From positions 4,578,997 to 4,642,996 of the forward strand of contig CBDIDV010000002.1 of NCBI GenBank assembly GCA_965277875.1: 64,000 nucleotides of DNA. The letters run 5' to 3'. The notes below the pieces were generated by a model that saw only the letters and a program-made list of their open reading frames with translations, did not search any database and was not told the DNA's origin. Position numbers and translations under genes: made by a program. Below are positions 2,338-59,995 of the stretch, one piece after another. The DNA comes from Chthonomonadaceae bacterium. GTDB lineage: Bacteria > Armatimonadota > Chthonomonadetes > Chthonomonadales > Chthonomonadaceae. The first letter of the stretch is position 1; every line of letters starts with the position of its first letter.

Positions 2338-3225
2338 ATGTCTCTAAGTACAAAGCGATTGAGCGGTGTGCTGACCGCGATATTGACGCCGTTCGACGTG
2401 AACGGCGATCTGGCCCTGGAACATTTCCCGGCCCTGCTGGGCTTTCAGCGGAATGCGGGCATTGACGGCGTGATCGTGTGCGGCACGAACGGGGAAGGCA
2501 CGTCGCTTTCCGTAAGCGAACGTAAGCTGGCTCTGGAAGCGGTAATGGCGCATCGGGGGGACTTGGCGGTTGTGGCGGGAACCGGAGCCGTGAGCATTAC
2601 GGACGCCATAGAACTGACGCGTCATGCCGCAAACGTGGGCGCGGACGCGGTTCTTGTGCTGCCGCCGTTCTTCTACAAAAATCCGAGCGCGCAAGGGCTG
2701 GCGGACTACTTCAAAGCCGTTCTGGACGCCGCGCCCATCCCAAATCTGCTGTACAACATTCCGCAGCACAGCGCGGTCGAGGTGACGGACGAGGTCTTGA
2801 CCCTGCTGCATGGACACCCCAATCTGGCGGGACTGAAAGACAGTTCGGGCGAGTGGGCGAGCGCCCTGCACTACATCGAAACGTACCCCGATCTGCAAAT
2901 TTTCGCGGGCAGCGACAAACTGGCGAGCCGCAGCTTCGCGCAGGGCGCAAACAGCATATCGGGCGGCGCGAACATGTTTCCCGAAGTGGTCACAGCCATA
3001 CGGGACGCGGCAAGGCAGGGCCTGGAGCAGGCACAGGCCGCGCAAGCCCGCGCCGACGCCGCATTCGCCATCACCACGCGCTACCCCTTTATCTCGACCA
3101 GCAAAAGCGTGATCGCGCAGCGCGGCCTGCCGCGCCTGGGCGTTCGCCCGCCCCTCGTTCCCCTCTCCCACGCGCAGGAACAGAGCCTGATTGCGGAGCT
3201 TACCTCGGCGGGTCTGCTGTCTTGA
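2338..3225 (+). CDS. DapA-family class I aldolase (dihydrodipicolinate synthase-like lyase)
   Basis: GTNGEGTSLS matches the DapA/NAL GxxGE motif and (beta/alpha)8 pattern. ATG at 2338. The stop TGA lies inside the left arm of a palindromic repeat. Confidence 0.7.
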   Translation: MSLSTKRLSGVLTAILTPFDVNGDLALEHFPALLGFQRNAGIDGVIVCGTNGEGTSLSVSERKLALEAVMAHRGDLAVVAGTGAVSITDAIELTRHAANVGADAVLVLPPFFYKNPSAQGLADYFKAVLDAAPIPNLLYNIPQHSAVEVTDEVLTLLHGHPNLAGLKDSSGEWASALHYIETYPDLQIFAGSDKLASRSFAQGANSISGGANMFPEVVTAIRDAARQGLEQAQAAQARADAAFAITTRYPFISTSKSVIAQRGLPRLGVRPPLVPLSHAQEQSLIAELTSAGLLS

Positions 3226-3336
3226 ACTGTGATGCGATTGTCTGAACCATGATTTATCGGATTAAGATGACTACCATGATTAGATGCGTCTTCGTCATGG
3301 TAATCGTTTAATCAGACGCATCACAGCTCAAGACAA
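3219..3336. repeat. palindromic intergenic element (family R3 variant) with GTCTTGAAC / GTTCAAGAC ends
   Basis: gtcttgaactgtgatgcg ... cgcatcacagctcaagacaac inverted arms. The stop codons of both convergent flanking genes (3225 TGA and 3328 TGA) sit inside the GTCTTGA ends. Confidence 0.55.
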
Positions 3337-4345: not shown

Positions 4346-5749
<1,404 letters not shown>

Positions 5750-5755
5750 GGTTAT

Positions 5756-5984
5756 GCACCGCGAAACACGCCCAACAAACGAAACGAATACAAATACAAG
5801 AGGAGTTATCCACAGATTACGCAGATTTACACAGATTACGATGCAACAAAGATATGACAGGAAACTTTCTGCTCCAAGCCATTATCTGTTGTGAAATCCT
5901 GTAAATCTTGAAAATCCTGTTAATCCTGTCTATGGATTGGATCTCTTGTCTGTCTCTTTACGTTTGTTTGGCGTGTTTCGCGGT
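5756..5984. repeat. MITE-like element (family R2, copy 1) with ~22 bp terminal inverted repeats
   Basis: Ends gcaccgcgaaacacgcccaacaaacg / cgtttgtttggcgtgtttcgcggt. Conserved core ttatccacagattacgcagat...acagattac and aatcctgtaaatcttgaaaatcctgttaatcctgtc, shared with copies at 31.0 and 32.8 kb. Confidence 0.6.
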
Positions 5985-6743: not shown

Positions 6744-6783
6744 AAAACCGGGCGCAAGTCAACTGACTTGCGCCCGGTTTTTG
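6744..6783. terminator. bidirectional rho-independent terminator
   Basis: aaaaccgggcgcaagtca-ac-tgacttgcgcccggttttt between convergent genes. A-tract upstream and T-tract downstream. Confidence 0.65.
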
Positions 6784-7142: not shown

Positions 7143-8051
7143 TTAGTAGCCGCAGTAGTGGCCCTGCGACGTGGTAAAGTCGTAGTCGGGGCGGAACAGG
7201 TAAGCGTGGTCATACTGGGCGTCGTACCAGCTTAACTGCGCATACGCGTTTTTGTCATACGTGCAGTAAGGATCGGTCATCCATCCGTTGCGGGCGGGCT
7301 GTACCACGGCTGCCATCGTGCGGAATTTCGTGTGTCCATCGGCATACGTAAACACCTGCCCGTTGCCGTGCGTCGTCATGGGGCCATCCACGTTGCCGCC
7401 GTTCCACAGATAATCGTAGCAGCCATCTGTGCTGCAGGAGCCATTGCTTTTCACGGCCGTATACGTGCATCCCGCGCTGCCGTCGCACTCCATGTCCGGG
7501 TTGGCGGTCTGATAGCCGAGCAATTTGGCCTTGCCGTCGCCTTCCCACACGGCGGGGCAGGAGGCGGGATTGGCGATGCCCGCGAGCGTATAGCCATGCA
7601 GATCGCCGTTGAAGCTATATGTGACGGGAACCGGCGCGACCGCGCCCGGCGTCGGCAATCCCGACAGCTTCACAAGCTGCGCGCTGGGGCAGGCCAGCAC
7701 CTGATAGTTCTTTATGTAGGGCTGTGTGGAGTTGGCCCAGAACTGCGAGTAGGCGGTGGTGAGAGCGGCGGACTGGCCCGGAATCCAGTTGGCCGGAACC
7801 GACATGAAGTAGTACCACAGCCACTGCCCGTTGTACTTGGGATAGGCGAGGGCATACGTTTCATCGTAGTCCTGCACGTACATCATCAGGCCCGTACCCA
7901 GTTGTTTCTGGTTGGACAGGCACGATGTCTGGCGGGCCTTTTCGCGGGCCTGAGCGAAGACGGGGAAGAGGATCGCGGCGAGGATCGCGATGATGGCGAT
8001 GACCACGAGCAGTTCGATGAGGGTAAACCCTCGACGTAAACCAGAACGCAT
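7143..8051 (-). CDS. prepilin-type N-terminal cleavage/methylation domain + DUF1559 (H-X9-DG) protein
   Basis: [32 protein letters not shown] class III signal. [12 protein letters not shown] and C-terminal [12 protein letters not shown]9-DG motif. Confidence 0.85.
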
Positions 8052-8500
8052 GACAAGACTCCTTCTGACAACAGTTGAGCGACGTACAGAAATAGGGCCT
8101 ACTTCATTGTATGCGTGTTTGCAGCGAACGATGCGGTTGTGCGCACAGGTAGAAAAGCAACATCAGCCACGCCACAACAGGCGCAGGCAGGCGGTCAGCA
8201 GGGACGCGCGGGCGAAACGAGGGACAAACCTTGTCGGGGACAACAACAGCGTCGTCAACAGCAAATCAGCAGTACACTATCAGGATGTTATTATAACATA
8301 TACAACGAGTGTATTGTACACCAATAGGACGAATTTATAGGAAGGGCGCACCAAAATTGTCCAAATCGTTCATAGGTCTAAATCCTCGTCCAGCTACACG
8401 CTCTGCGGTATAGCGCAGAAATTGGTAACAAAAGCGGCGTGTTCAGCAAAACTGCCGAACACGCCGCTTCTAATAAGCGAGAACATCTGCATAGACCGAG

Positions 8501-8704
8501 CTATTTAGACGAGTCGAAGGTGGGAGCCTGAGGCGCAGAGGCGTTGGTACCACTAGATGGCTTCGCGCCGCCTTTGTCTTTTACAGCGGGAGTAGAGGAA
8601 GCACTGGACTGATCCTCTCCGCTCTTTGAACAGCCTGCGAGCATAGATAAACCCAGCAGACCGAACAAACAGAGGGCGATATGCAGATGGCGACGTGAGT
8701 GCAT
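8501..8704 (-). CDS. small lipoprotein, Ser/Ala/Pro-rich (67 aa)
   Basis: AAGGAG ribosome-binding site. Signal peptide with LAGC lipobox. Sits downstream of a DUF1559 gene. Confidence 0.6.
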   Translation of the reverse strand: MHSRRHLHIALCLFGLLGLSMLAGCSKSGEDQSSASSTPAVKDKGGAKPSSGTNASAPQAPTFDSSK

Positions 8705-8785
8705 AAATAAGCTCCTTTTTGGAATAATTTTGGAAGAAGACGCAACAACTTGTGTAAATTGTTGCGTCTCAGCTGGTGACTGTTG

Positions 8786-9667
8786 TCAGAAATCATTGTC
8801 AGGGCGGAAGAAGTAGAAATGACCGTTGGAAAACCAAGCGCCCTGCGGCAGACCAGCCGCACTGTAGTTCACAAACGGGTCATTGTTATAGTCCGTTTGC
8901 TGTGGCGCTATAACCTGAGTTGATAAATGCTTAAGCTTGACATGACCATCGGCATAGGCATACGTCATGCCCTGTCCATGCACGTTGGCAGTGTCGGTAA
9001 AGCCAAACCATGAACTGGCCAACCCATTCTTAATGGACGGGTCGGTCGTGCCGTTATGATAGACACAGGGCTTGGTGGCATCGGGGCATTGCAGAACGGG
9101 ATTGGATATGTAGTATCCATTGTAATAACCTTTACCGTAGTTCTCGGTAATCATGGCCGTACTGGCAGGCCGTACCACGCCTGACAGCGGGTAGCCCATC
9201 AGCAAACCGTTGTAGACGGAGGACACTTTTTGCGGTAACGGCGCACCCGCAGACTGCGTGACCTTTGTAGGGTTTTGCGTCGCCGCATCCGGGCAAAGCT
9301 CAACTCCGTAGTTTTTGGTGTAGGTCTGAACGGAGTTGGCCCATGACAGAGTGGTATAGTTCGTGTAGTTGGCTCCGCATACGCCATTCGCGCAGGCCGT
9401 GTTATAGGGAACGGGAGTCAAATAGTTTGTCGTCCAACCAATTCCCTGATAGAAGCCACAGGCGAGAGGGAAAGTCTCGTCGGAATCCTGCGTGTACATC
9501 AGAGTCGCTGTAGCCAACTGCTTTTGGTCGCTAATACAAGCGGTCTGGCGGGCTTTGGCGCGGGCCTGGGCGAAGACGGGGAAGAGAATGGCGGCAAGGA
9601 TCGCGATGATGGCGATGACCACGAGCAGTTCAATGAGGGTAAACCCCCGGCGTAAATCGGAACGCAT
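8786..9667 (-). CDS. prepilin-type N-terminal domain + DUF1559 protein (paralog 2)
   Basis: [48 protein letters not shown] ... [10 protein letters not shown]. The first ~150 nt are nearly identical to the paralogs at 8051 and 11489. The ORF track extends to 9787 but the ATG at 9665-9667 matches the family start. Confidence 0.85.
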
Positions 9668-10260
9668 AACAAAAATTCTCCTGAGAAGCGGTACGTGACG
9701 GCGGGCGCAAGCGACATGCAGGCGACCCACACAAAGGATAAAGAGAGCGCAAGATGCAAAAAACGCGCAGAGCCTGCGCGAATGCAATGCAGCTTGTGAC
9801 GCGCCTTTGCGCCGAAAGCGTCCTACGTCAGAGTAGAACTAACCCCTGCCTCAGCCGAAGTGAAAATGAAAGTGCAGATACATCAAGGCTGTGGAAAAAG
9901 GATAACACTATCATAACATACTTTTACGCGCTTTGTCAGCATTTAGAGCAGTCAGCAGAAATATTAGATGAAAATACCGCGTTGCCAGTCTTCGCTCAAG
10001 CCAGCCGCTACGGAAAACACAGCGGCGCGTTTACCATCTACTCTGAACGCGCCGCCGGACTTTTCCATGCCACAGAAGCCGAAGCGTCAGGGGGTTAGAT
10101 ATTGACCCCGTCAACAACCAGAGGGGGATCGTTCGCCGGGTAGAAGAATATACCGCCCGAACTATCATGGCCGGTTTGGTATCCGGTAAAGTTGACTGTC
10201 CAGACACCTGACGACAAAACGGATGTGTCAAACTGAAGGTCTATGTTGACACAGGCACGA

Positions 10261-10300
10261 ACAGGGCGCAAGACTATTGTCTTGCGCCCTGTTCATTTAT
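10261..10300 (+). terminator. rho-independent terminator-like hairpin
   Basis: acagggcgcaagac-tatt-gtcttgcgccctgt followed by tcatttatgttgatttt. The T-tract is on the plus strand only. Confidence 0.5.
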
Positions 10301-10383
10301 GTTGATTTTGCGATGCAGGATGATTAAAAGAGGTATTCACTCTTCTAACCTGCTGAACATCCGCACTGCGCCAATTGGAGACG

Positions 10384-10586
10384 CTACTCGGTGTGTGTAG
10401 AAGGAACGCTTCCTGCGGGTTTGCTTCCTGCGGGCGCTGTTGTCGTCGCGCCGCCGGGGGCGCTTCGCGGCGTGATCGTCGGCGCCACAGCGGCGGGGCC
10501 ATCATCATGGCTGCAACCGATAAGGCCGGGCAAAGCGACCAGGGTTAAAGCCATCAGGGCGGACACTCGGAAACATACTTTAATGT
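10384..10586 (-). CDS. small lipoprotein, Pro/Ala/Thr-rich (67 aa)
   Basis: GTG start with GGAGA upstream. Signal MNIKVCFRVSALMALTLVALPGLIGC lipobox. Downstream of a DUF1559 gene. Confidence 0.5.
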
Positions 10587-10634
10587 TCACTATCGTTCTC
10601 CAGCGAAAATAGTTGCAACGGATACACACGATCA

Positions 10635-11489
10635 TCAGAAGTTGGTATCAGGCGAGAAGCCAAGCTCGTGGCAGCTATTGGCGCTGCGCCATGTTCGTTT
10701 GGGCGTCCCATCCGCATTGTAGGCTTTCCACGGCTCGGTGACTTTGTCGGTTACGTTTGGATCCTGAACCGTCGTTGACAAGCGCTTGAACTTTGCATGA
10801 CCGTCCGAGTAGGCATAGGTCTCTCCACTGGAGGAGTGGAGACCGGCGGGCGCGCCGAAAGCGTACCACCCGCTGCTTCCGCCAGCCGCCGTGCAGGGGC
10901 TTGCATCGGGCTTGTACATGCAGTTCCGATTCGCATCATCGCAGTTGGTGAGGATCGGGTTCGAGAAGTCTGTGTTGCCGCCATAAGCGGCATTGCTCTC
11001 CGTAATCATCGGGAGGCCAGCCGGGCTGGAGACGCCTGCAATCGGATAGGATTGCAGCAGGCCGTTGTACACGTTCGAGATCTTGATGACGGGGGTCACT
11101 GCATAAGCGAAGTATTTGGTTGTGACTTCGGGACAAATGGCAACGCCATAGGATTTGGTGTAAGGCTGAATGGCATTGTGGAAAGCCTGTCCGAACGAGG
11201 CGGCATAAGACGGGCCGAAGATCGTGCCGGGTACGCCGAGATAGTATTTGCTCGTCCAGCCCAGCGCCGGATCCCAGCCAAACGCTTCGGGAAACGTTTC
11301 GTCGTAATCCTGTGTGTACATGAGCGTCGAAAGAGACTCCTGCTTCATGTTAGACAGGCAGCTTGTCTGTCGGGCTTTGGCGCGGGCTTGGGCGAAGACG
11401 GGGAACAGAATAGCGGCGAGGATCGCGATAATGGCGATGACCACGAGCAGTTCGATGAGGGTGAACCCTCGGCGTAAATCGGAACGCAT
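10635..11489 (-). CDS. prepilin-type N-terminal domain + DUF1559 protein (paralog 3)
   Basis: [50 protein letters not shown] ... [13 protein letters not shown] at 11487-11489. The long upstream extension in the ORF track is rejected. Confidence 0.85.
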
Positions 11490-11910
11490 AATCAAGACTC
11501 CTTCGGAAGCTGCAGCGGACGGGCGCAGAGAAACAGGCGCGAAAATCATGCCTGTACGCGAGCCGTGTCTGCACAACGGATAAAGATAGCGCGGAAAGCA
11601 AAATCCATGCGGGAAATCCCGCGCAGGCCGGTTACAGCCTGAGACGCGTCTTTGCGCTGGATACGTCCTACTTCGTGGTAAGACCGCTTGATAAAAGCCA
11701 CAACAGTTGAACGATAGGCTAATAATTAAGATAGGGTTAATATAACACACTTTTGGCCCGTTTGACACGCCTGACAGCATAGAACCGGCACTATTTTCGT
11801 ATATTTTTGTGGATTTCTCAGGAAACGTCGAACAGGCCAAAATTCTGCCCCGACAAATGACCGCATCACAGCAAATGCTTGTTGCTGATGCAAGGTACGT
11901 TAATCAACCT

Positions 11911-14808
11911 TTAGGCGGCAGGGGCGAATATGCGGGCGCGTTCTTCCAGTTTGCTCTGCTTGTCCTGCCACGCAAGCAGTCGGCCCCGCTCCTCGTCCAC
12001 GACTTCGGGCTTGGCCCGCGCCACGAAACCCGCGTTGCCCAGTTTGGCCTGTGACCGCTCGATCTCTTTGGCGACCGCGTCCAGTTCCTTTTGGATACGG
12101 GCGCGTTCCTTGTCCATGTCCATCGCGTCCCCGATTTCCAGAAACACCTCCATATCTTCACCGGGCGTACCGATCCATTTCCCGCTCTGGCCGTTTTCCG
12201 GCGAGGGGGCGGACGCAAGAAACAGGGGCGCAGACTGCAAACGGGCCAGGTCTACGATCAGGTCGCCGGTCTCGCGCAGGGCGGCATTCGCGCTCGCATT
12301 CGCGGTCACGATGGCTGCTGTGAGCCGCACACCCGGCGCGATGCTCAGTTCCACGCGCAGGTTGCGTATCGTGCGCGTGGCCGCAACCGCATACGCTATC
12401 GCCTGACATGCCTCGGCATCCTTCCACGCCTCCAGCCCCCCGGCCTGCGGGTAGGGGGCAAGACAGATCGTGTTGTTTGTTGTCTGCTGCTTGCTGCTTG
12501 CCGATGCCTCGCCGCCGGTGTCCTCCCCTTTCTCCTTTTTCCTTTCTCCTTTTTCCTGCGTCAGAGCCTGCCATATCTCCTCGGTGATGAACGGCATCAG
12601 GGGATGCAGCAGACGCAGCGTGATTTCCAGCACATACGCCAGCATGTTCCGGGCGGCGCGGCGGGACGCGCCCTCGCCGCGCAGTCGTGGCTTCGCCATT
12701 TCCAGATACCAGTCGCAAAAGTCGTTCCAGAAGAAGTTATACAGGGCGCGCGTGGCGTCGTCCACATCGTAACTGCCCAGCCGCGCGTTCACGGCCTCGA
12801 TGGTGTCGCGCAACTGCGACAGTATCCACCGATCCGCGCTCGTCTGTTCCTCACGCGGCGGCAGAGACAGGAAAACCGTACTCTCTTCTCCTTCCCTCTC
12901 TTCCTCTTCCAAACTCATCAGCACAAACCGGCTCGCGTTCCACAGCTTGTTGCAGAAGTTGCCCGCGAGTTCGGTGCGCTGCTCGCTGTACTTGATGTCC
13001 TGGTTTTTGCCGGCCTGACCGAGCAGACTAAATCGCGTGGCGTCCGCGCCGTATTTTTCGATCAGGTCAATCGGGTCAATGCCGTTGCCCAGCGTCTTGC
13101 TCATGCGCCGCCCCTGCTCGTCCAGCACGGTCGCATGGATGTACACGTCGCGGAACGGAACCTCGCCCAGAAAGTCCAGCCCGGTCATCACCATGCGGGC
13201 GACCCAGAGATAAAGGATCTCCTGCGCCGTGGACAGCAGATTGGTCGGATAGAAATAGCGCAGGTCGGCGGTATCGCGCGGCCATCCCAGCGTGGCATGA
13301 GGCCACAGAGCCGACGAAAACCATGTATCCAGCACATCCTCATCCTGCCGACAATCCGCCGTGCCTAATTTGGCGACCGCCTCTTCCCGCGTCCGCGCAA
13401 ACGCAAACCGCCGCCCGCCGTACTCGCGCACGGTGTTGTTTGTTGTTTGTTGTCTGTTGTTTGTTGATGCCTCCGTTGCGTCGGTGTCTTCCCCTTTTTC
13501 CTTTTTCCTTTCTCCTTTTTCCTCCTCCCCCTCTTCCTCCTCCGTCCACCAAACCGGAATGCGATGCCCCCACCACAATTGGCGGCTGATGCACCAGTCG
13601 CGGATATTCTCCATCCAGCTAAGATAGATGCCCTCGTAGCGGTCGGGAATGAAGCGCACCTGGCCGGATTTCACCACATCAATGGCGGGTTTGGCAAGCG
13701 GTTTCATGTCCACGAACCATTGCTCGGACAACAGCGGCTCGATCACCTCTTTGGAGCGTTCCGAGATGGGCTGCTGTATCGTATAATCTTCGATCTTGTC
13801 CAGCAGGCCCAGGGCTTCCATGTCGGCCACGACCTTTTTGCGGGCCGCATAGCGATCCAGGCCCGCATAGTCGGGGCCGGCCAGAGCGGTCATTTTGCCG
13901 TCCTTGCCGATCACGATGGGCTGAGGCAGATCGTGCCGCTGCCCGGCCTCAAAGTCGTTCAGGTCGTGGGCGGGCGTCACCTTGACCGCGCCCGACCCGA
14001 ACTCCGGCTTGGCGTAGTCGTCGGCTAGGAGCGGGATTTCCCGGTCGGTCAGGGGCAGGCGCAGCATCTTGCCAAACAGGGGCTGATAGCGCTCGTCGGC
14101 GGGATTGGCCGCAACCGCAGCGTCGCCGAACAGGGTTTCCGGGCGCGTGGTGGCAATCGTGATATGGCCGCTATCGTCCGCGAACGGGTAGCGGAAGTGG
14201 TACAGCTTGCCCTGCACCTCTTTGGTCTCGACTTCGATGTCCGACACGGCTGTCTGGAATTTGATGTCCCAATTCACGATGCGGTTGCCCCGGTAGATCA
14301 GGCCGCGCTCGAACCAGCGTCCGAACTCCTCCATGACCGCGTCCACATACGTTTCATCCAGCGTGAAGCGGGCGCGTTCCCAGTCGTAGGAGCAGCCCAA
14401 TTTCTCGAACTGATAGTAGATGCGTGTGCCGTACTGCTCGCGCCACTGCCAGCAGCGTTCGACAAACGCCTCGCGTCCCAAGTCGTGCCGGGTCAGACCC
14501 TCTTTGGCGAGTTCCCGTTCCACGACGTTTTGCAGGGCGATGCCCGCGTGGTCGGTTCCCGGCAGGCACAGGGCTGCGAACCCGCGCATTCGATGCCAGC
14601 GCGTCATGGCGTCCAGGACGCTGTTGTTCAGGGCGTGGCCCATGTGCAGGCTGCCCGTGATGTTGGGCGGCGGGATCGTGATGCAGTAGGGTTCCTTGTT
14701 CGGATCGGGTTCGGCATGGAACACGCCCCCATCTTTCCAGGCCGCATACCATTTGCTTTCCACGCTTTTCGGATCGTAGGCTTTGGGCAGCAGTGTCTCG
14801 TCGGACAT
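11911..14808 (-). CDS. valS: valine--tRNA ligase (965 aa) carrying two in-frame low-complexity insertions
   Basis: HMGH and KMSKT class I motifs, a ValRS editing domain and a C-terminal coiled coil. GAGGAG ribosome-binding site upstream of the ATG. Contains two ~30-aa EKGERKKEKGEDT...QQTTNNT inserts (see repeats at 12467 and 13437). Confidence 0.95.
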   Translation of the reverse strand: MSDETLLPKAYDPKSVESKWYAAWKDGGVFHAEPDPNKEPYCITIPPPNITGSLHMGHALNNSVLDAMTRWHRMRGFAALCLPGTDHAGIALQNVVERELAKEGLTRHDLGREAFVERCWQWREQYGTRIYYQFEKLGCSYDWERARFTLDETYVDAVMEEFGRWFERGLIYRGNRIVNWDIKFQTAVSDIEVETKEVQGKLYHFRYPFADDSGHITIATTRPETLFGDAAVAANPADERYQPLFGKMLRLPLTDREIPLLADDYAKPEFGSGAVKVTPAHDLNDFEAGQRHDLPQPIVIGKDGKMTALAGPDYAGLDRYAARKKVVADMEALGLLDKIEDYTIQQPISERSKEVIEPLLSEQWFVDMKPLAKPAIDVVKSGQVRFIPDRYEGIYLSWMENIRDWCISRQLWWGHRIPVWWTEEEEGEEEKGERKKEKGEDTDATEASTNNRQQTTNNTVREYGGRRFAFARTREEAVAKLGTADCRQDEDVLDTWFSSALWPHATLGWPRDTADLRYFYPTNLLSTAQEILYLWVARMVMTGLDFLGEVPFRDVYIHATVLDEQGRRMSKTLGNGIDPIDLIEKYGADATRFSLLGQAGKNQDIKYSEQRTELAGNFCNKLWNASRFVLMSLEEEEREGEESTVFLSLPPREEQTSADRWILSQLRDTIEAVNARLGSYDVDDATRALYNFFWNDFCDWYLEMAKPRLRGEGASRRAARNMLAYVLEITLRLLHPLMPFITEEIWQALTQEKGERKKEKGEDTGGEASASSKQQTTNNTICLAPYPQAGGLEAWKDAEACQAIAYAVAATRTIRNLRVELSIAPGVRLTAAIVTANASANAALRETGDLIVDLARLQSAPLFLASAPSPENGQSGKWIGTPGEDMEVFLEIGDAMDMDKERARIQKELDAVAKEIERSQAKLGNAGFVARAKPEVVDEERGRLLAWQDKQSKLEERARIFAPAA
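12467..12560. repeat. family R1 repeat (polypurine/polypyrimidine tract) inserted in frame in valS
   Basis: gttgtttgttgtctgctgcttgc...cccctttctcctttttcctttctcctttttcct. Encodes QEKGERKKEKGEDTGGEASASSKQQTTNNT between conserved ValRS segments EIWQALT and ICLAPYP. Confidence 0.55.
13437..13535. repeat. family R1 repeat, second in-frame copy in valS
   Basis: gttgtttgttgtttgttgtctgttgtttgttgatgcctcc...cccctttttcctttttcctttctcctttttcct, ~85% identical to the copy at 12467. Encodes EEKGERKKEKGEDTDATEASTNNRQQTTNNT after the conserved HRIPVWW segment. Confidence 0.55.
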
Positions 14809-16089: not shown

Positions 16090-16473
16090 CAGGTTCTCCT
16101 TGATGATATATGCTGGAAAGATTTGCAATTGTGTGGCTTGCGGTTCGTTTTGACGATGCGGCTATGATAGCACAGACTTCCACTAAACGCAAGCGATTTT
16201 CCGGGCGGTATGACCCAAATTTGCTTATTTTACGCTTGATAGTTAATGCAAAAACCGGTGTGCGTTGATTTTGCATACCCTGTGGCGATATACAAAGCCG
16301 TTCCTCTGAAGACATACGGGCCATGAGAAGCAAGGCGCGGCCTTAATTTCGCTGCCGTGCAAGGATTCCAGGCCGAACATGTCGAAAGTAGGCGTATCCT
16401 GTCCAAACACAGGCTGTATGTTGGAAGTCTGTGCCGACCGAAACCTGCGCCGGTTGTTTGCAAGCCTGACCAT

Positions 16474-16528
16474 ATTGTTATTCTATTGTTATTCTATTGT
16501 TATTCTGTTGTCATTCGATTGTTTTTCT
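16474..16528. repeat. tandem 11-bp repeat (5 units: attgttattct x3, then gttgtcattcg and attgtttttct)
   Basis: Direct tandem copies immediately upstream of the GAGGAG ribosome-binding site and start of the gene at 16552. Confidence 0.6.
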
Positions 16529-28498: not shown

Positions 28499-28520
28499 GC
28501 GGTAGTTCGTTTCACTTCTT

Positions 28521-28666
28521 GTCTTGAACTCGGATTACACGGATTGAATGGATGACCATGATGTTTGTACCCAACTCTGCCCTGTTGGATTGTAGAACAG
28601 GCTGCTACAAACGGCATATCTAATCCTGTCCATCCTATAAATCCGTGTAATCCGAGTTCAAGACAA
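28521..28666. repeat. palindromic element (family R3) with 27-bp perfect terminal inverted repeats
   Basis: gtcttgaactcggattacacggatt ... aatccgtgtaatccgagttcaagacaac. The interior contains taatcctgtccatcctataaatcc, shared with family R2. Confidence 0.65.
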
Positions 28667-31044: not shown

Positions 31045-31045
31045 G

Positions 31046-31264
31046 TTTCACGCAAAGACGCCAAGACACAAAGAGAACAAGAAAAGTTATCCACAGATTA
31101 ACACAGATGTTTACAGATTACCATGCAAAAGGATAAAAGAACAACATCAGGCTGTTTGTGAAATCAACCTCCAGCTAGTTCTAAAATCCTGTCCATCCTG
31201 AAAATCTTGTTAATCCTGTCTAATTCTCTTGTCTTTCCTTTGTGCGGGGCGTCTTTGCGTGAAA
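31046..31264. repeat. MITE-like element (family R2, copy 2)
   Basis: Ends tttcacgcaaagacgcc / ggcgtctttgcgtgaaa. Same conserved core as copy 1 (ttatccacagattaacacagat...acagattac; aatcctgtccatcctgaaaatcttgttaatcctgtc). Abuts the rlmN start codon. Confidence 0.6.
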
Positions 31265-31274
31265 CCCTACTGTA

Positions 31275-32774: not shown

Positions 32775-32935
32775 TCTCACGCAGAGACAAAGCACAAATA
32801 CTATCCACAGATTACGCAGATGACACACATTAAGGACGGTGAACAGTCGAGTCGGCTACCACATCAATCCTGTACATCCTGAGAAATCCTGTTAATCCTG
32901 TCCATTTCCCCTGCGCCTCTGCGTGGGGCGTGAGA
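32775..32935. repeat. MITE-like element (family R2, copy 3) inside the nfeD-flotillin operon
   Basis: Ends tctcacgcagagacaaagc / gcctctgcgtggggcgtgaga. Conserved core ctatccacagattacgcagat; aatcctgtacatcctgagaaatcctgttaatcctgtc. Confidence 0.6.
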
Positions 32936-37697: not shown

Positions 37698-37880
37698 TAT
37701 CCGGCATATAAAATGCCGGATACTAGGCCTGCGGCCAACTGTCCTGTTTGTTAAGGGTCGTGTGTAAGCAGCGACATTGGATGTTCAGTCCGCTTAACCC
37801 ACAACGTAAATTCATTCCCATTTTGTGTTCCTCGTCCGGTTGGCCGCAGGCCTAATATCCGGCATTTTATATGCCGGATA
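37698..37880. repeat. long inverted repeat (two ~42-bp arms) containing near-palindromic tatccggcatataaaatgccggata boxes
   Basis: Left arm ttatccggcatataaaatgccggatactaggcctgcggccaac at 37698-37739. Its reverse complement at 37839-37880. ~100 bp spacer. Upstream of vapBC. Confidence 0.6.
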
Positions 37881-40389: not shown

Positions 40390-40399
40390 CTAGAGAGTG

Positions 40400-40615
40400 T
40401 TAGGCACTTTTGAGCAAGGGAGCGGCCTTCGCGAGCATCAGCACGGCAAAAGCGACAAAATGAAAGGCGGTGAGCGTCTCTTCGAGCCGTTCGTAGTCGC
40501 GTGCTAAACGTCGGAAGCGACTGGCCCAGGCAAAAGAACGCTCCACTACCCAGCGTCTGGGCAATAGCACAAAACCTTTCTTGGCTTCGGGCAACTTGAC
40601 GACTTCCAGTTGCAC
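40400..40615 (-). CDS. IS5-family DDE transposase, C-terminal fragment
   Basis: [49 protein letters not shown] matches the characteristic IS5/IS427 C-terminus. Confidence 0.75.
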
Positions 40616-40747
40616 TCCCTGTTCTTGGGCGGCGTGGCGGGCGTTAGGGCCGGTGTAGCCTTCATCTACATACTATAATGACCCCAAGAAACTGGACAAT
40701 GGTTTAAGGTGGTGGCTGTGTCAAAATAGAACACAGGAGAACCCATC

Positions 40748-41038
40748 ATGTCCACACTACGTAAACGCTATTCTGCCGAGTTCAAGGCCAAGTTGGCGCT
40801 CGAAGTGGTCAAAGGCAGCCGCACTCTCGCGGAGATCGCAAGCGAAGCGCAAGTGCATCCCAATCTGCTGATGCAGTGGAAGAAGCAACTGCTCGATAGC
40901 CTGCCCACCGTCTTTGCCGACAAGCGCGTCAAGGACGACAAAGACCAAGAAGAACTCACGGATCAACTCTACCAGCAGATCGGGCAGCTCAAGGTCGAAC
41001 TCGACTGGCTCAAAAAAAAATCAGGACGGCTCTCTTGA
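40748..41038 (+). CDS. IS3-family transposase OrfA (helix-turn-helix / leucine zipper)
   Basis: MSTLRKRYSAEFKAKLALEVVKGSRTLAEIASEAQVHPNLLMQWKKQ... is a classic IS3 OrfA. Ends just after the A9 run at 41014-41022. Confidence 0.85.
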   Translation: MSTLRKRYSAEFKAKLALEVVKGSRTLAEIASEAQVHPNLLMQWKKQLLDSLPTVFADKRVKDDKDQEELTDQLYQQIGQLKVELDWLKKKSGRLS

Positions 41039-41867
41039 TGTACTGCGGCAGCGCGTCGAAGCCCGTCATCCGCAGATCAGCATCGCGCGCCAATGTGAAC
41101 TGTTAGGTTTGTCTCGCTCCGGCTACTACTACCAACCGCGTGGCGAGAGCGAACTCAACCTACGCCTGATGCGCCTGATAGATGAAGAGTACACCGCGCA
41201 CCCGTTCTTCGGCTACCGCAAGGTCACGCGTATGCTGCGCCAGGGTGGATACGAGGTCAACAAGAAGCGGATTGCCCGCTTGATGCAGGTCATGGGCTTG
41301 CAGGCAATGGTTCCCGGCCCGAATACAAGCCGCCCGTCGCCTGAGAACCCGACCTATCCTTACCTGCTGCGCGGCGTCAAGATCGACCACGTCAATCAGG
41401 TGTGGAGCGGCGACATCACGTATATTCCCATGCCGAAGGGATTTGTGTACCTGTTTGCTGTGATCGATTGGTACAGCCGCTTCGTCCTGGCCTGGCAGCT
41501 TTCCAACACAATGGACACCGCCTTCTGTATAGAAGGGCTGGAACAGGCACTGACAAGCGGCAAGCCGCATATCTTTAACAGCGATCAGGGCGTTCAGTTC
41601 ACGAGCAGGGAGTTTACCGGTCGCCTGCTGGCGGAAGACATTGCAATCAGCATGGATGGGCGAGGCCGCGCCTTAGACAACATCTTTGTAGAACGCTTGT
41701 GGCGAACCGTCAAATACGAAGACGTATATCTGAAAGGATATGAAACGCCTAACGAAGTGCAAAGCGGACTGTGCGCCTACTTCCACTTCTATAATGAAGC
41801 GCGTCCGCACCAGGCGCTGGGCTACCAGACACCGGCAGCCGTGTACCGTCAATCGCTCGGCTGCTAG
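41038..41867 (+). CDS. IS3-family transposase OrfB (DDE integrase core); the frame opens at 40914 and joins OrfA near the A9 run
   Basis: DDE integrase catalytic core. OrfB lies in the +1 frame relative to OrfA. Confidence 0.8.
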
Positions 41868-41933
41868 GCCGACAAAGATCGGCACACCGACCACCTTAAA
41901 CAGGACGAAAATTTGTCTTGACAAATGGGGTCA

Positions 41934-42471
41934 CTATATACGCCACTTCAACGTGGTCACCCGTTACTTCCTGCACTTTTCGGAGTAGTGCGCCTACTTG
42001 GGCGCGTTCCTGCTCGTTGGCAGGCGTTACCAGACAGGCGAGCAACTGACCGAGTGTGTCCACAGCGATATGCGTTTTGCTGCCGCGCGTCTTCTTGTGA
42101 CCGTCGAAGCCACCACGACTGCCGCTCTCAATGGTGCTTCGCAGGGTGCGTCCGTCCAGCACCACCGCCGTAGGCTCTTGGTCACGCCCCAACGCCTTGC
42201 GGAGCAGGTGGCGCAGGTCATGCACGATGTTCTCGAAGCACTTGGCGGCAATCCAGCGTTGCGTTTGCTCGTAGACGGTGTGCCACGGCGGTAGATCATG
42301 CGGCAGCAGACGCCACGCCGCCCCGGCTCGTACCAGCCAGCGCAGAGCATTGAAGAGTTCACGCAGCGGGTACTGCCGTTGCGGAGCGTCTTGGGTCATT
42401 AGGGTCAGGTAGGGCGCGACGAACGCCCATTCCTCGTCAGAAACGTCACTGGAATATGGCTTGCGAGTAGA
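41934..42471 (-). CDS. IS5-family transposase, N-terminal fragment
   Basis: MSTRKPYSSDVSDEEWAFVAPYLTLMTQDAPQRQYPLRELFNALRWLVRAGAAWRLLPHDLPPWHTVYEQ is the IS5-family N-terminal domain. Split from its C-terminal part by the IS3 insertion. Confidence 0.7.
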
Positions 42472-42523
42472 CATACCTGCTACTACGACTTGCCTGCTCG
42501 CCAAAGTGCCTAACACTCTCTAG

Positions 42524-43363: not shown

Positions 43364-44548
43364 TTGACATCTGATGCCGGTGTTTCCGGGCTGTGGGCGC
43401 GGCGGGTTCTGGCGTTCTCGTGCTGTTTCGCCATGTTCGCGTTCGCCGTGTACCTGGGCGCGATTGGCGTACTGCTGCCCGCCGTGGGGCGCGCGTTCGG
43501 CCTGGGGGCGGCGGCGCAGGCAAGGCTTTTTCCGGCGAACTTTGCCGGGTTTACGCTCGTCGTACTGGTCGCGGGGTGGGCCTCGGATCGCCTAGCTCGC
43601 AAGACCGTGCTGATGGCGGGAACGGCCCTGTTCGCGCTGGGCTTGATTGTGTTTGCGCGGGCTGCCACGTTCGATGTGGCCCTGGCCGCGTCGCTGCTCA
43701 TCGGCGGCGGCAGCGGCGCGATGGGCGTGACATCGAGCGCGCTGGCCGTAGACCTGTACCCGCACCGCCGCGCGCATCTGTTGGCGGCGATACAGGTGGC
43801 GTTCGGATTAGGCGCGGCACTGGGGCCGGGGATCGCGGCTCTGATGCTCGGTCAGGGCGTGTCGTGGCGCGTCCTGTACGGCGCGCTGGCGTTTGTCGTT
43901 GTGCTGCTGTTGTTCGCGCTGCAAAGTCAGCCCGCGCCTGTTCGTGTGCAGCGTTTCGATGCGCCGCCCACGCCTTCCCTGCCGCAACTGCTGGCGCGAA
44001 GGCCCGTGCAGATCTTGTGTCTGTTTCAGATTTTGTACGGCGGGGCCGAAGTCGGCTACTATTCGTGGATGCCCACGTATTTCGAGAAACGTCTGCCCCA
44101 GGGCGTGATGCTGGCCGGGATTACGGTGACGGTCTTCTGGACGGCCATGACAATCGGGCGCAGCCTGACGGGGCGGTTCATGGGTCGAATACCGTTTATG
44201 CGCCTGAGCGCCCTGCTGGCAATAGCGGGAGCGGCGAGCGCGGGCCTTACCCTGCTCTGGAGCAGTCCGTACATCGTGCTGGTGTTCGTGGCGTTGACGG
44301 GCCTGTGTTTCGCGGGCATTTATATTCTGCTGACAGCCGAAGCGAGCGAACGCTACCCGCATGAGATCGGCGGCGTGTTCGGCTGCATGAACGCCATCGG
44401 CGCATTGGGCAGCGCGCTTGTGCCGTGGGCCGTCGGCAGTCTGGCCGCGACGCGGGCGGGATGGACGGGCGCATTGTGCCTGATCCCCTGCGCCGCTGTG
44501 GGCGTGGCCGTTTGTTCTGTATTGCTGCAAAGAAAAGGGTTGTCTTGA
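43364..44548 (+). CDS. MFS transporter (12 TM), TTG start
   Basis: Twelve hydrophobic helices. MFS motif A-like GRFMGR / DRLARK between TM2 and TM3. The stop TGA lies within the left arm of the R3 repeat. Confidence 0.75.
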   Translation: MTSDAGVSGLWARRVLAFSCCFAMFAFAVYLGAIGVLLPAVGRAFGLGAAAQARLFPANFAGFTLVVLVAGWASDRLARKTVLMAGTALFALGLIVFARAATFDVALAASLLIGGGSGAMGVTSSALAVDLYPHRRAHLLAAIQVAFGLGAALGPGIAALMLGQGVSWRVLYGALAFVVVLLLFALQSQPAPVRVQRFDAPPTPSLPQLLARRPVQILCLFQILYGGAEVGYYSWMPTYFEKRLPQGVMLAGITVTVFWTAMTIGRSLTGRFMGRIPFMRLSALLAIAGAASAGLTLLWSSPYIVLVFVALTGLCFAGIYILLTAEASERYPHEIGGVFGCMNAIGALGSALVPWAVGSLAATRAGWTGALCLIPCAAVGVAVCSVLLQRKGLS

Positions 44549-44642
44549 ACTCGGATTACACGGATTAGCAGGATAGACAGGATTAGGTGGGCGCGTCATC
44601 CTGTTCATCTCATTAATCCGCGTAATCCGAGTTCAAGACAAC
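44542..44642. repeat. palindromic element (family R3) with 27-bp terminal inverted repeats
   Basis: gtcttgaactcggattacacggatt ... aatccgcgtaatccgagttcaagacaac. The interior has a second inverted-repeat pair (ttagcaggatagacaggattagg). Confidence 0.65.
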
Positions 44643-47356: not shown

Positions 47357-48439
47357 ATGGCGGCGTCAAACGAAATCAGCGTTTCTCCTACTGTTGCTTC
47401 TATGCCTGTCGTTCCTGTGTCGGCGTTGCAGGATATAAGCGGCAGTACGCGGGTCGTGGGCGTGTTTGGGCATCCGGTCACGCACAGTTTGTCGCCCGCG
47501 ATGCACAATGCGGCGTTCAAAGCATTAGAGTTGCCTTATGTTTATGTGCCGTTTGCCGTGGCCCCGGACGCGATTGGTTCGGCTCTGCGCGGCCTGCCTG
47601 CATTGGGCATTGTGGGCGTCAACCTGACCATCCCGCACAAAGAGAGCGCACTGCCCTTTCTGGATGAGATCACGGACGAAGCGCGGATTGTGGGCGCGGT
47701 CAACACCGTGCATTGCCTGAACGGACTGCTGATCGGCGACAACACGGACGGACGCGGGTTTTATCAGCCGCTTGTCGAGGCGGGCGTCACAGTGCGCGGG
47801 CAGACGGTCGTGGTGTTGGGCGCGGGCGGCGCGGCGCGGGCCGTGGTGTACCGACTGGTACGCGAGGGCGCGAACGTGATTCTGGCAAACCGAACACGCG
47901 AACGCGCCGAGCGGCTGGCACACGACATCGCGCAAACCTGTGCATCCGATTTTACTTCCGACCGCTCCGGAAAAACTGATTTTCAGGCAAACGCGTCACG
48001 GCTAACTATTGCTTCGGCCAGCGTCTCCCCTGAGATATATGCTTCTGTAACCTCTTCTCACGAGAGAAACCTCGGCAAAGACGCCGTGCAGGTGGTGACA
48101 TGGGACGACAGCAGCACGTCCCAAAACGCGCTGAGGGACGCGCTGGCCCAGGCGCGCGTTCTGGTCAACACCACGCGTGTCGGCATGGTTCCTAACGCGG
48201 ATGCTATGCCCGATGTTCCTTTGAACGCCCTGCCCCCGACAGCACTGGTGTATGATCTGGTATATAATCCTATCGAAACACGGCTGCTCCACGCCTCACG
48301 CCGGCGCGGACTCAGCACATTGACAGGCGTAAAGATGCTGGTCTATCAGGGCGCAGCATCGTTTGAACGCTGGACAGGCGTATGGCCGCCGACCGAAGTT
48401 ATGGAACAGGCCGTCATTGAGGGACTCAGCCGAAAGTAG
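47357..48439 (+). CDS. aroE: shikimate dehydrogenase with a ~60-aa low-GC insertion
   Basis: SLSPAMHNAAF, NLTIPHK and GAGGAARAV (NADP Rossmann) motifs. The inserted segment CASDFTSDRSGKTDFQANASRLTIASASVSPEIYASVTSSHERNLGKDAVQVVTWDDSSTSQ lies between the Rossmann core and the C-terminal helix. Confidence 0.8.
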   Translation: MAASNEISVSPTVASMPVVPVSALQDISGSTRVVGVFGHPVTHSLSPAMHNAAFKALELPYVYVPFAVAPDAIGSALRGLPALGIVGVNLTIPHKESALPFLDEITDEARIVGAVNTVHCLNGLLIGDNTDGRGFYQPLVEAGVTVRGQTVVVLGAGGAARAVVYRLVREGANVILANRTRERAERLAHDIAQTCASDFTSDRSGKTDFQANASRLTIASASVSPEIYASVTSSHERNLGKDAVQVVTWDDSSTSQNALRDALAQARVLVNTTRVGMVPNADAMPDVPLNALPPTALVYDLVYNPIETRLLHASRRRGLSTLTGVKMLVYQGAASFERWTGVWPPTEVMEQAVIEGLSRK

Positions 48440-48442
48440 GTT

Positions 48443-48509
48443 AGGAGAAAGTAAAAAGTAAAAAGGAAAAAGTGACAGATGCGTTACTTTCTCCTTTCTC
48501 CTTTTTCCT
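48443..48509. repeat. family R1 repeat (polypurine tract followed by its polypyrimidine complement; hairpin-capable)
   Basis: aggagaaagtaaaaagtaaaaaggaaaaagtgac...gttactttctcctttctcctttttcct. Same CTTTCTCCTTTCTCCTTTTTCC unit as the valS inserts. Confidence 0.55.
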
Positions 48510-52123: not shown

Positions 52124-52729
52124 ATGCCGAACACTCGTTGCCGCGCGTTTACATTGGTGGAACTGTTGGTTGCTGTGGGCGTGATTGGGATACTGGCGGC
52201 GTTGCTGTTTCCTGTGGTCAACAAAGCGCGAAGTCAGGCGCGCAAGACGACGTGCCTGTCCAACCTGCGGCAGGTCGGTCTTGCGCTTAATCTGTACGAG
52301 CAGGATTGGGGGCAGTACGCGCCGCAGGGCTGGCACGACAACAGCCAGGATCTTGAACTCGTGCTGCCTGACCCGCTCGCCGCGTACACGCACGGCGCGG
52401 CGCTGTACCAGTGTCCCGAAACCAAATGCGAGTACAGTTTTCGCGGCTCGCTTGAAATGGATCTGGACGGACACTATAAATTGTTTCAGATGGCCCCGGA
52501 TAACGTACTTGCCTATTGCCCCCACGAGGATCATATTGAAGGACGCAAAGGCGACTTCTACCAGGTACTGCGTCAGGATATGTCGGTCAGCCGCGTACCC
52601 TCCGCCGATGTGAAGCTATGGTACTACATCAACGGGACATGGCAGCCGAACGCGCCCGCTTCCGAGTCGTATCAGCCGGGCGTAGTAGTGTTTCCCGGCG
52701 AAACGTGGCCGCTGCCGTTCACGAACTGA
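52124..52729 (+). CDS. type IV pilin-like protein (class III signal peptide)
   Basis: AGGAGA ribosome-binding site. MPNTRCRAFTLVELLVAVGVIGILAALLFPV. A TTCLSNLRQVGLALNLY segment shared with the DUF1559 proteins, but no H-X9-DG motif. Confidence 0.75.
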   Translation: MPNTRCRAFTLVELLVAVGVIGILAALLFPVVNKARSQARKTTCLSNLRQVGLALNLYEQDWGQYAPQGWHDNSQDLELVLPDPLAAYTHGAALYQCPETKCEYSFRGSLEMDLDGHYKLFQMAPDNVLAYCPHEDHIEGRKGDFYQVLRQDMSVSRVPSADVKLWYYINGTWQPNAPASESYQPGVVVFPGETWPLPFTN

Positions 52730-57327: not shown

Positions 57328-57409
57328 GAAAGGGGCAGGGAAAAGGAGAAAGGAAACAGGAGAAAGCAGCGTCGCCGTCACTTTCTCCTTTCTCCTTTTC
57401 CCTTTTTCC
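57327..57409. repeat. family R1 repeat (hairpin-capable polypurine/polypyrimidine)
   Basis: ggaaaggggcagggaaaaggagaaaggaaacaggagaaagcagcgtcgccgtcactttctcctttctccttttccctttttcct. Lies between pilC and pilD. Confidence 0.55.
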
Positions 57410-57419
57410 TGAAGCAAGC

Positions 57420-58613: not shown

Positions 58614-58684
58614 CCGACAGGAACAACGCGCCATGAAGCGTCGTCAAAGAAGCAAGTTTGCGCGTTAGTGAAGACGCGGGTATA

Positions 58685-58841
58685 GGAACGTACCCGTCTT
58701 GGAGGCGGCTGCGCCGCCGGGCGTCCACCGGGCGTAGCCGGAAGGACAAAGCGTCCTCGCGGACGCGATACACTTGTGCTTTCAAAGCATTCACGTCCAG
58801 AGGACGTTCGGTGCGTAGCGCCTCCAAGACGGGTACGTTCC
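58685..58841. repeat. REP-like composite element (family R5, long form) with 23-bp inverted ends
   Basis: ggaacgtacccgtcttggaggcg ... aagcgtcctcgcggacgcgatac ... cgcctccaagacgggtacgttcc. Confidence 0.55.
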
Positions 58842-58906
58842 TGTACCCGCGCCCGTATCCGCATTCGCGAGTCGCTGCCTGCCTGGGTGGGCCAAAGGAA
58901 TCGTTT

Positions 58907-59812: not shown

Positions 59813-59995
59813 CGCGCAGAGTATAGTCGGCTCCAATAACGTCCGCGTGACAAACTGGCTCACGACGCAAGTACGCAGAGGATTTACCGTCCGCAGGACG
59901 ATGTCCTTCGCTGCGCGTGGACGCCCGGCCGAAGGCCCTGTTATTCGGTGGAAAATTTAGAAAGTATATACCGGATACTTGTGCGGGAGAATAGC

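Follow-up and report, generated by a model that had tools for sequence, protein, structure and literature searches.

Introduction

Bacterial interspersed mosaic elements (BIMEs) of E. coli and the pneumococcal BOX elements are mosaic, modular repeats with species-specific modules, and they form stem-loops in operon transcripts. Their modules are not known to be shared across phyla. IS1397 and ISKpn1 are full insertion sequences (ISs) of the IS3 family which insert into the loops of repetitive extragenic palindromes (REPs) with target-site duplications; nested miniature inverted-repeat transposable elements (MITEs) also exist. The intervening sequences of 23S rRNA form a long hairpin at a helix tip, with a small, selfish-looking open reading frame (ORF) encoding four-helix-bundle proteins in the loop. 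Here, these and other systems are compared with R2, an element present in three copies (c1, c2 and c3) in a 64-kb stretch of DNA from a Chthonomonadaceae bacterium, contig CBDIDV010000002.1, referred to below as the window. R2 probably represents non-coding, hairpin-forming repetitive DNA, arranged in layers, of the kind exemplified by MITEs and by REP doublets forming hairpins (REPINs), with selfish, hairpin-dependent behaviour; we put the probability of this at roughly 0.6.

Like BIMEs and BOX elements, R2 is a composite assembled from a limited set of modules which are combined in various ways, whereas concentric palindromes of periodic units are not found in those elements. It shares with IS1397, ISKpn1 and nested MITEs the placement of a putative mobile element inside the loop of an existing palindrome, but the inserted units in R2 are small palindromes or half-arrays, and no duplication accompanies them. 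The 23S rRNA intervening sequences can be likened to R2 and related periodic palindromes (hereafter the R2 class) in architecture; their ORF belongs to another family and their site lies within rRNA.

At one end of a REP there is a short tag, GTAG (or CGTC), which stays unpaired (PMC3733652). REPs and REPINs, together with the associated transposase RAYT (REP-associated tyrosine transposase), have been described in Pseudomonas and E. coli (PMC3116915, PMC3733652). They resemble R2 as short intergenic palindromes and hairpin-folding inverted doublets in which compensatory changes are common; they also exist in many copies, show no target-site duplications and are regarded as selfish. In R2, in contrast, no clear GTAG or CGTC tag is evident, no RAYT was seen among the 40 ORFs of the window scanned with Pfam, and the arms are arrays of a ~9-nt unit. 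The R2 class differs further in that its modules are near-identical across phyla and its associated gene encodes a PD-(D/E)XK protein of the GxxExxY family. The heptamers known as short tandemly repeated repetitive sequences (STRRs) in cyanobacteria, and the TAACTGA repeats, are likewise short intergenic tandem units which occur as the same unit in distant phyla (PMC4679880). TAACTGA direct repeats are found in Beggiatoaceae, Cyanobacteria and Bacteroidetes, and their horizontal spread has been suspected with ‘no mechanism evident’ (PMC4679880). These are direct 7-mer arrays, often just upstream of start codons, while the R2 class is built of 9-mers, and an inverted copy normally completes the hairpin.

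R2 is thus set apart from the closest known systems by its periodic arms, concentric layering, cross-phylum module identity and associated gene family. An incomplete search of the literature on the units described below, on GxxExxY and on Armatimonadetes repeats found no description of such a class.

Anatomy of the R2 copies

The initial annotation placed three copies of R2 at 5756-5984 (c1), 31046-31264 (c2) and 32775-32935 (c3), all in the + orientation and with a shared interior, and each of these observations is borne out. The right core, AATCCTGTTAATCCTGTC, has three matches in the window at up to three mismatches, and these are exactly c1, c2 and c3 (0.02 expected). The left core, TTATCCACAGATTA, matches the identical three sites at up to two mismatches (0.16 expected). 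Both cores therefore occur at these sites alone and far above chance.

R2 is a composite and not a simple MITE. An outer palindrome, of a type denoted E, E' or F, surrounds a loop which holds a left half-array of B units and a right half-array of A units. The B array is TTATCCACAGATTACGCAGAT, composed of CACAGATTA/CGCAGATTA units and ending in TTATCCACA; the A array consists of AATCCTGT units, which can also be written as AATCCTGTN units. The outer stems are built from CGCGAAACA units in E, from CGCAAAGAC in E' (an E'-like arm, CGCGCAAAGACGCAAAGACGCCAAGA, is present in locus L123) and from CGCAGAGAC / CACAGAGG in F. Every layer is a run of ~9-nt tandem units, and identity at a lag of nine nucleotides is 0.40 in arms of the class and 0.41 in R2 arms, compared with 0.25-0.28 in random background segments. 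Because the units are in tandem at ~9 nt, the arms can re-pair in several registers after units are gained or lost. Outside the A and B arrays, R2 shows no similarity to other loci carrying the A or B motif.

In c1, the left arm of the outer stem (E type, ACCGCGAAACACGCC...; 5758..5787) and the right arm (5955..5984) are 30 nt long and 90% complementary. Between them lie the B half-array (TTATCCACAGATTACGCAGATTTACACAGATTAC; 5806..5839), which matches the left core and whose module also forms B-B palindromes in metagenomes, and the A half-array (AAATCCTGTAAATCTTGAAAATCCTGTTAATCCTGTC; 5894..5930), which matches the right core and whose module also forms A-A palindromes in genomes. As single-stranded DNA, c1 folds into an end-to-end hairpin of ~230 nt (dG -47.6 kcal/mol, z -7.8) in which the two arms pair. 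In c2, the left arm (E' type, GTTTCACGCAAAGACGCC, then AAGACACAAAGAGAACAAG; 31045..31086) and the right arm (31221..31265) pair perfectly over their terminal 18 nt (31045-31062 / 31248-31265), and the pairing is extendable to ~40 nt. The B half-array (31087..31121) and the A half-array (31184..31220) are again matches to the left and right cores, and the copy also folds end to end (dG -42.1 kcal/mol, z -6.7, or -8.2 in a second folding). In c3, the left arm, assigned from sequence and fold, is a degenerate F type (TCTCACGCAGAGAC; 32775..32788), followed by the B half-array (CTATCCACAGATTACGCAGAT; 32801..32821; left-core match) and the A half-array (32866..32902; right-core match). Its right arm (32915..32935), assigned from sequence, has an additional 8-nt block (GGGGCGTG), and clean pairing is limited to TCTCACGC/GCGTGAGA; c3 folds no better than its shuffles (z -1.0 and 0.0). 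All of these features are given on the + strand. The description of arms that differ between copies while remaining complementary within each copy accordingly holds for c1 and c2 and was overstated for c3. Loop sequences are poorly conserved among the copies.

Occurrence of modules A and B outside the window

The A module was sought with the right-core 18-mer in one genome per species and the B module with the left core in metagenomes, giving at least 120 genome contigs and at least 120 soil-metagenome contigs respectively. Among the matches listed, the A motif is present in Verrucomicrobiota, Kiritimatiellota, Acidobacteriota, Bacteroidota and Chloroflexota, and also in Gamma- and Betaproteobacteria, Nitrospirota, Gemmatimonadota and Armatimonadota. 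Isolates which carry it include Thioalkalivibrio denitrificans, Spirosoma terrae and Verrucomicrobium sp. A few dozen matches to one 18-mer are expected by chance in the genome scan. The contexts of the A motif are non-random; it is accompanied by further AATCCTGTN units and, in most cases, by an inverted copy which precedes it by 0-100 nt. A palindromes typically read GACAGGATTAACAGGATT-loop-AATCCTGTTAATCCTGTC; B is found mostly in short palindromes of the form TATCCACAGATTACRCAGAT-loop-ATCTGYGTAATCTGTGGATA on metagenome contigs.

Pairing each left arm with the next right arm, across 248 loci and the window, gives 59 B-B, 55 A-A and eight hybrid combinations, and three of the eight hybrids are the R2 copies of the window. 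Motif hits are mostly intergenic, since 38% fall in open frames of at least 120 codons, which cover 90% of all bases. Palindromes can also be nested within palindromes of the same type, as in T. denitrificans, where A palindromes lie inside other A palindromes between hslU, ubiE, ubiB and lpdA.

In a Lewinellaceae metagenome-assembled genome (L025, 5400-5700), A arrays lie within a ~97-nt head-to-tail tandem repeat of at least three copies, which is another route of module amplification. Plasmids yielded one weak match and GenBank phages none. Viral contigs of IMG/VR do carry arrays, some of them (L303/L304 from IMGVR_UViG_3300037264_001851, L295 and L277) with three to six copies of the B or A motif. 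Such contigs could transmit the modules horizontally, or they could be host sequence wrongly binned as viral.

Orthologous spacers in relatives

All three copies are intergenic, at gene boundaries as originally proposed: c1 lies between eno and a conserved 84-aa gene, c2 between the flotillin gene and rlmN, and c3 between a 228-aa ORF and the flotillin gene. The corresponding spacers were compared in Chthonomonadaceae-like Armatimonadota; among named organisms, the flanking genes have their nearest relatives in the Chthonomonadaceae.

The flotillin-rlmN spacer, which in the window holds c2 (an E' stem with A and B halves), is empty in L242 and L243 (7-22 and 13 nt), contains a bare E hairpin in L245 and contains an E hairpin with an unrelated loop in L246. 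In L241 (93% flotillin identity) it holds an E hairpin with the A half only, in the orientation opposite to c2, and the stem of this element is nearest to that of c1. In L244 there are three concentric layers, namely GGAGAAAAG arms (type D), E arms and an A half. The E stem family is thus able to stand alone at this site, in L245, and is found there with other loop contents in L246, L241 and L244. The ORF-flotillin spacer is empty in L245 and L242; in L241, L246 and L248 it holds orthologs of c3 with longer, better-paired stems. The L246 ortholog of c3 has an 8-nt block (CCCCRCGC) on both arms, that of L241 lacks the block altogether, and in the window and L248 a single arm carries it. The spacer downstream of eno is empty (10 nt) in L256, which has 96% enolase identity, and in L255, at 99% enolase identity, it is occupied by a different palindrome made of CGGATGAAN units. 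Two relatives at 93% enolase identity have GGAGAAAAG arms around an E half (L257) and CACGGGG arms around a CGGATGAAA left and a AATCCTGT right array (L258).

The same spacers are therefore empty, occupied by a bare hairpin or otherwise filled in relatives, which indicates fast turnover. The elements at orthologous sites fold strongly (z -3.7 to -10.9), the exception being c3 of the window. Comparison of empty with filled orthologous sites revealed no target-site duplication at the three spacers. The tetranucleotide TTAT occurs near both ends of c1; it does not adjoin the left end of the element and does not recur at the other copies.

Two of these relatives have further features close to the spacers. 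In L248 (2892-3671), a TPR-repeat gene lies between the flotillin gene and rlmN, and a conventional terminator-like hairpin, GGTTTCTCCC..GGGGAGAAACC then TTTTGTTT, follows the flotillin gene in place of a periodic palindrome. In L258 (1-934), eno separates its filled spacer from an IS605-type TnpB gene (OrfB_IS605, Cas12f1-like), which is encoded on the strand opposite to eno and ~570 nt upstream of it.

Covariation of the arms

In an alignment of six outer stems of R2 type, 90.4% of cells pair and four pairs are changed on both sides. The covariation score of this small sample (six stems) is 0.178, compared with 0.089 for shuffles, none of 500 of which reach it, and 0.03-0.10 for slid partners. 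The initial annotation had described one family with covarying terminal stems and had taken this as a pointer to RNA or to a hairpin-dependent mobile element. Covariation is formally present; the picture of one family is too simple, however, as the outer stems are separate, widespread palindrome families, and part of the apparent covariation results from different outer palindromes around a similar core. Nor does covariation point to RNA, since REPINs show the same compensatory pattern (PMC3116915).

Rfam models gave no match in the window at gathering thresholds, and scans by E-value returned chance-level hairpin matches only, such as a 25-bit match to a plant miRNA model whose cutoff is 211 bits. 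Among 344 palindromes of the class, G·T mismatches (426) are as common as A·C mismatches (427), and in those with at least two transition mismatches strand concordance was seen in 60 cases against 63 expected, with no strand-specific wobble signal. Binding arrays for RNA proteins of the CsrA or Hfq type, suggested by GGA and ARN motifs, were also considered and rejected, since the purine arm is occupied by pairing to the complementary arm and the elements have no fixed orientation. A match of ACAGGATTA to positions ~781-789 of 16S rRNA was judged coincidental.

Association with GxxExxY nuclease genes

Within 1.6 Mb of loci selected by motif there are six GxxExxY genes (TIGR04256 / PF13366, PD-(D/E)XK nuclease), each with a motif hit no more than 320 nt away. 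Of the six, four are placed exactly in the loop of a palindrome, of A-A type in L015 and L097 and of B-B type in L133 and L137. The open frame of the L015 gene continues into the A array (1260-1287) and ends in ...NPVNPVNPV. A second, independent sample was chosen without reference to the motif and comprises nine genes, six from plasmids and three from viral contigs. Periodic arrays adjoin every one of the nine, and inverted arms bracket five of them, three scoring above all 399 random controls and two at ~2%.

These genes are located between housekeeping genes. In Sphingomonas (L253), for example, the GxxExxY gene is flanked by TTCACGCGAAGGCGCGAGGACGCGA on the fabD side and TCGCGTCTTCGCGGCTTCGCGTGAA on the fabG side, and these arms resemble the E' stem of R2. 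The Bernardetia gene has arms of CACAGAGA units, while that of L306 has 48-nt arms which resemble a gene-less palindrome of the relative L244. The identity of the nucleases follows the type of arm, at 58-71% for B-B pairs, 49% for A-A pairs and 34-39% for A-B pairs. R2 and the gene-bearing elements thus have a common arm vocabulary, and the gene-less R2 would be a derivative of GxxExxY-bearing elements with periodic arms. The nuclease is possibly the trans-acting enzyme of spread, co-location being the sole ground for this suggestion. A search of PDB sequences with a GxxExxY protein gave no match.

Proposed mode of spread

The initial annotation had offered a hairpin-dependent mobile element as one of two readings of R2, and this reading is supported in a modified, nested form, as the spacers of relatives are empty, hold a bare hairpin or hold differently nested elements. 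Elements of the R2 class are gained, lost and replaced in permissive intergenic spacers, often one inside another. Arms would stay complementary if a DNA hairpin or cruciform is what is maintained or spread, and they differ between copies in part because the copies carry different outer palindromes. The two arms of one element also change together, by insertion and deletion of units and by occasional double substitutions; such concerted change may stem from selection on a hairpin intermediate, or from one arm being copied off the other. From these patterns we infer that spread occurs by an active, hairpin-dependent mechanism.

A more specific and distinctly tentative proposal is that R2 and the other palindromes of the window are gene-less members of an undescribed, pan-bacterial class of selfish elements, whose autonomous members would consist of a ~130-aa GxxExxY gene bracketed by inverted arrays of ~9-nt units. 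In this scheme the GxxExxY nuclease would cut hairpin or cruciform DNA, and a donor element would be copied in with its arms as homology. A class driven in this way would explain why elements nest inside hairpin loops, why target-site duplications are missing and why the occupant of a given spacer is replaced so quickly.

Several points weigh against these proposals. No insertion event or intermediate was seen at the compared spacers, so mobility is deduced from comparison. The near-identity of modules across phyla could reflect a conserved binding factor and hence a function. Four of the nine independently sampled GxxExxY genes are not cleanly bracketed, a profile hidden Markov model search of the six-frame translation of the 64 kb found no GxxExxY gene in the window, and none was found in the short loci of relatives. 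The sample consists of three R2 copies and a few orthologs, and several assignments of boundary or homology are short alignments judged by eye.

Alternative explanations

R2 and its modules might be REP/REPIN elements mobilised by a RAYT, a Y1 transposase, encoded elsewhere in the genome, although we regard this as unlikely. REPINs are typified by inverted doublets which lie between genes, fold into hairpins and show compensatory changes (PMC3116915), the absence of target-site duplications fits single-strand Y1 mechanisms, and GTAGGGTT is found 2-6 nt outside one end of c1 and c2 (5746-5753 on the + strand, where it overlaps the eno stop codon, and 31266-31273 on the - strand), reminiscent of the GTAG tag of REPs. 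That sequence is missing from c3 and from the copies of relatives, however, and a base profile of the ends of A and B palindromes shows no GTAG or CGTC tag, which is likewise absent from c3 and from relatives' copies. There is no Y1 transposase among 40 ORFs of the window scanned with Pfam, REP families tend to be confined to single lineages while A and B are near-identical across phyla, and the gene inside the palindromes is GxxExxY and not RAYT. It is similarly doubtful that the palindromes are immobile and arise in place, by replication slippage and intra-strand template switching, with likeness between sites due to mutational or selective convergence. Such a process would be in keeping with tandem 9-nt units and whole-unit indels, the presence of the 8-nt block on two, one or no arms of orthologs, symmetric G·T and A·C mismatches and the lack of target-site duplications. 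It is difficult to reconcile with the same 18-20-nt strings at hundreds of unrelated sites in many phyla, with families that recur at different spacers within a lineage (stems at the flotillin-rlmN site of relatives are similar to that of c1), with a wholly different element at the c1 site in a strain whose enolase is 99% identical, or with palindromes that have a gene in the loop.

An ordinary MITE, that is, a deletion derivative of a DDE-type IS with conserved terminal inverted repeats and target-site duplications, is scarcely credible as an identity for R2. Termini differ between copies, no target-site duplication is present and inverted repeats are layered through the whole element and not confined to its ends, despite a fitting size (160-230 bp), terminal inverted repeats, intergenic position, multiple copies and the presence of two IS transposase genes in the window. 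Derivation from those ISs was rejected, as R2 has no similarity to the ends of either the IS5-like or the IS3-family element. There is little probability that the arrays are functional protein-binding sites conserved together with their binding protein, such as sites for DnaA titration via TTATCCACA, or for nucleoid proteins or gyrase as in BIMEs. Units are near-identical across phyla and regularly spaced at 9 bp, and the B half begins with the E. coli DnaA-box consensus TTATCCACA in c1 (5806-5814) and c2 (31087-31095), so that B-B palindromes contain two inverted DnaA-box-like 9-mers 40-60 bp apart. In c3, however, the sequence is CTATCCACA (32801-32809, one mismatch); the 9-bp period leaves sites off a single helix face, many different unit sequences occupy the same role, and close relatives dispense with the sites or replace them with unrelated unit types. 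A structured non-coding or cis-regulatory RNA, with a terminal helix selected for RNA base-pairing, was the other reading in the initial annotation and is now highly improbable. The long, stable hairpins of c1 and c2, the formal covariation of the outer stems and the position of copies between co-transcribed genes would all suit an RNA. Set against these are the lack of an Rfam match, an orientation to transcription which varies from copy to copy, L241 having the element at the c2 site in flipped form, spacers without the element in close relatives, poorly conserved loops, a c3 fold no better than shuffles and, across the 344 class members, no sign of a strand-specific G·U (wobble) bias. Selfish, hairpin-forming repetitive DNA is therefore the reading we prefer.

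Significance

If this reading is correct, one kind of modular hairpin repeat makes up a sizeable share of the intergenic DNA of many large-genome environmental bacteria. Hairpin repeats would then turn over faster than the flanking genes diverge in Armatimonadota, Verrucomicrobiota, Acidobacteriota, Bacteroidota, Chloroflexota and some Proteobacteria. GxxExxY / PDDEXK_3, a large family of unknown function, would gain a role as a nuclease which moves hairpins. There are also practical consequences. Open frames across arrays give rise to spurious low-complexity peptides in annotation, such as the NPVNPV tail, and arm covariation in the R2 class mimics the signature sought in RNA-motif discovery. 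Stem-loops of ~200 nt inside operon transcripts are of relevance to operon biology, and spacers which differ even at 99% enolase identity to strain typing.

Gene context and transcription

The plus-strand orientation reported for all copies irrespective of their neighbours was also found here; c1 is sense to transcription, while c2 and c3 are antisense. The statement that one copy abuts the start of rlmN applies to the longest ORF, and not to the start conserved in orthologs, which is 18 nt farther downstream. For the ‘nfeD-flotillin operon’, Pfam gave no confirmation of NfeD. No terminator-like or promoter signal was found within the R2 copies, and A palindromes are followed by TAAAAA and not by the T run of an intrinsic terminator. 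Any effect of R2 on the host is probably incidental, a big stem-loop in an operon transcript that does not terminate transcription.

Other repeats in the window

Beside the three R2 copies, the window contains at least five further periodic palindromes of other unit types. They are, like REPs and REPINs, multi-copy, imperfect intergenic palindromes whose inverted doublets fold into a hairpin. An intergenic palindrome of the R2 class at 3218..3335 has 33-nt arms which are 79% complementary. Another, at 28519..28666, consists of CGGATTACACGGATT / AATCCGTGTAATCCG units with 44-nt arms (86% complementary) and has ATCCTGTCCATCC in common with the A array of R2; a second copy of this type is found at 44539..44642 (45-nt arms, 84% complementary). 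A D-type palindrome of GGAGAAAG units at 57336..57411 has 31-nt arms that are 84% complementary, and related arrays lie at 12499-12557, 13479-13523 and 48439-48509. The D unit type is also the outermost layer around E hairpins in the relatives L244 and L257.

Repeats of other kinds are present as well. An inverted repeat of 42 nt at 37698-37739 / 37839-37880 (98% complementary, spacing 99 nt) is unlike R2; each arm has a small internal palindrome, TATCCGGCAT..ATGCCGGATA, and the pair lies in a 1.4-kb stretch without a confident gene. A 33-nt inverted repeat at 58675-58707 / 58819-58851 (97% complementary, spacing 111 nt) is located at the start of a pilin-like gene region. A perfect 18-nt palindrome at 6744-6781, AAAACCGGGCGCAAGTCA/TGACTTGCGCCCGGTTTT, has A and T runs on its flanks and looks like a bidirectional intrinsic terminator, with a geometry opposite to that of A-type palindromes. 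At 16473-16527, a tandem array of approximately five copies of an 11-nt unit, TATTGTTATTC, lies in or near the start of a 219-aa ORF.

The IS5-like element occupies 40390-42523 and has perfect 21-bp terminal inverted repeats (CTAGAGAGTGTTAGGCACTTT) and a transposase gene at 41896-42516 on the - strand. It is interrupted by the IS3-family element, which carries an ORF with HTH_21 and rve domains (40914-41867, + strand). Finally, many paralogs with an N-terminal methylation motif of prepilin type (N_methyl, DUF1559) are found at 7143-11840, 52124-52729, 58658-61000 and 63649-63695, adjoining type II/IV secretion genes (T2SSE, T2SSF), and the long repeat families of the window, direct and inverted (D1, D10, D11 and I1-I6), are due to these paralogous genes.

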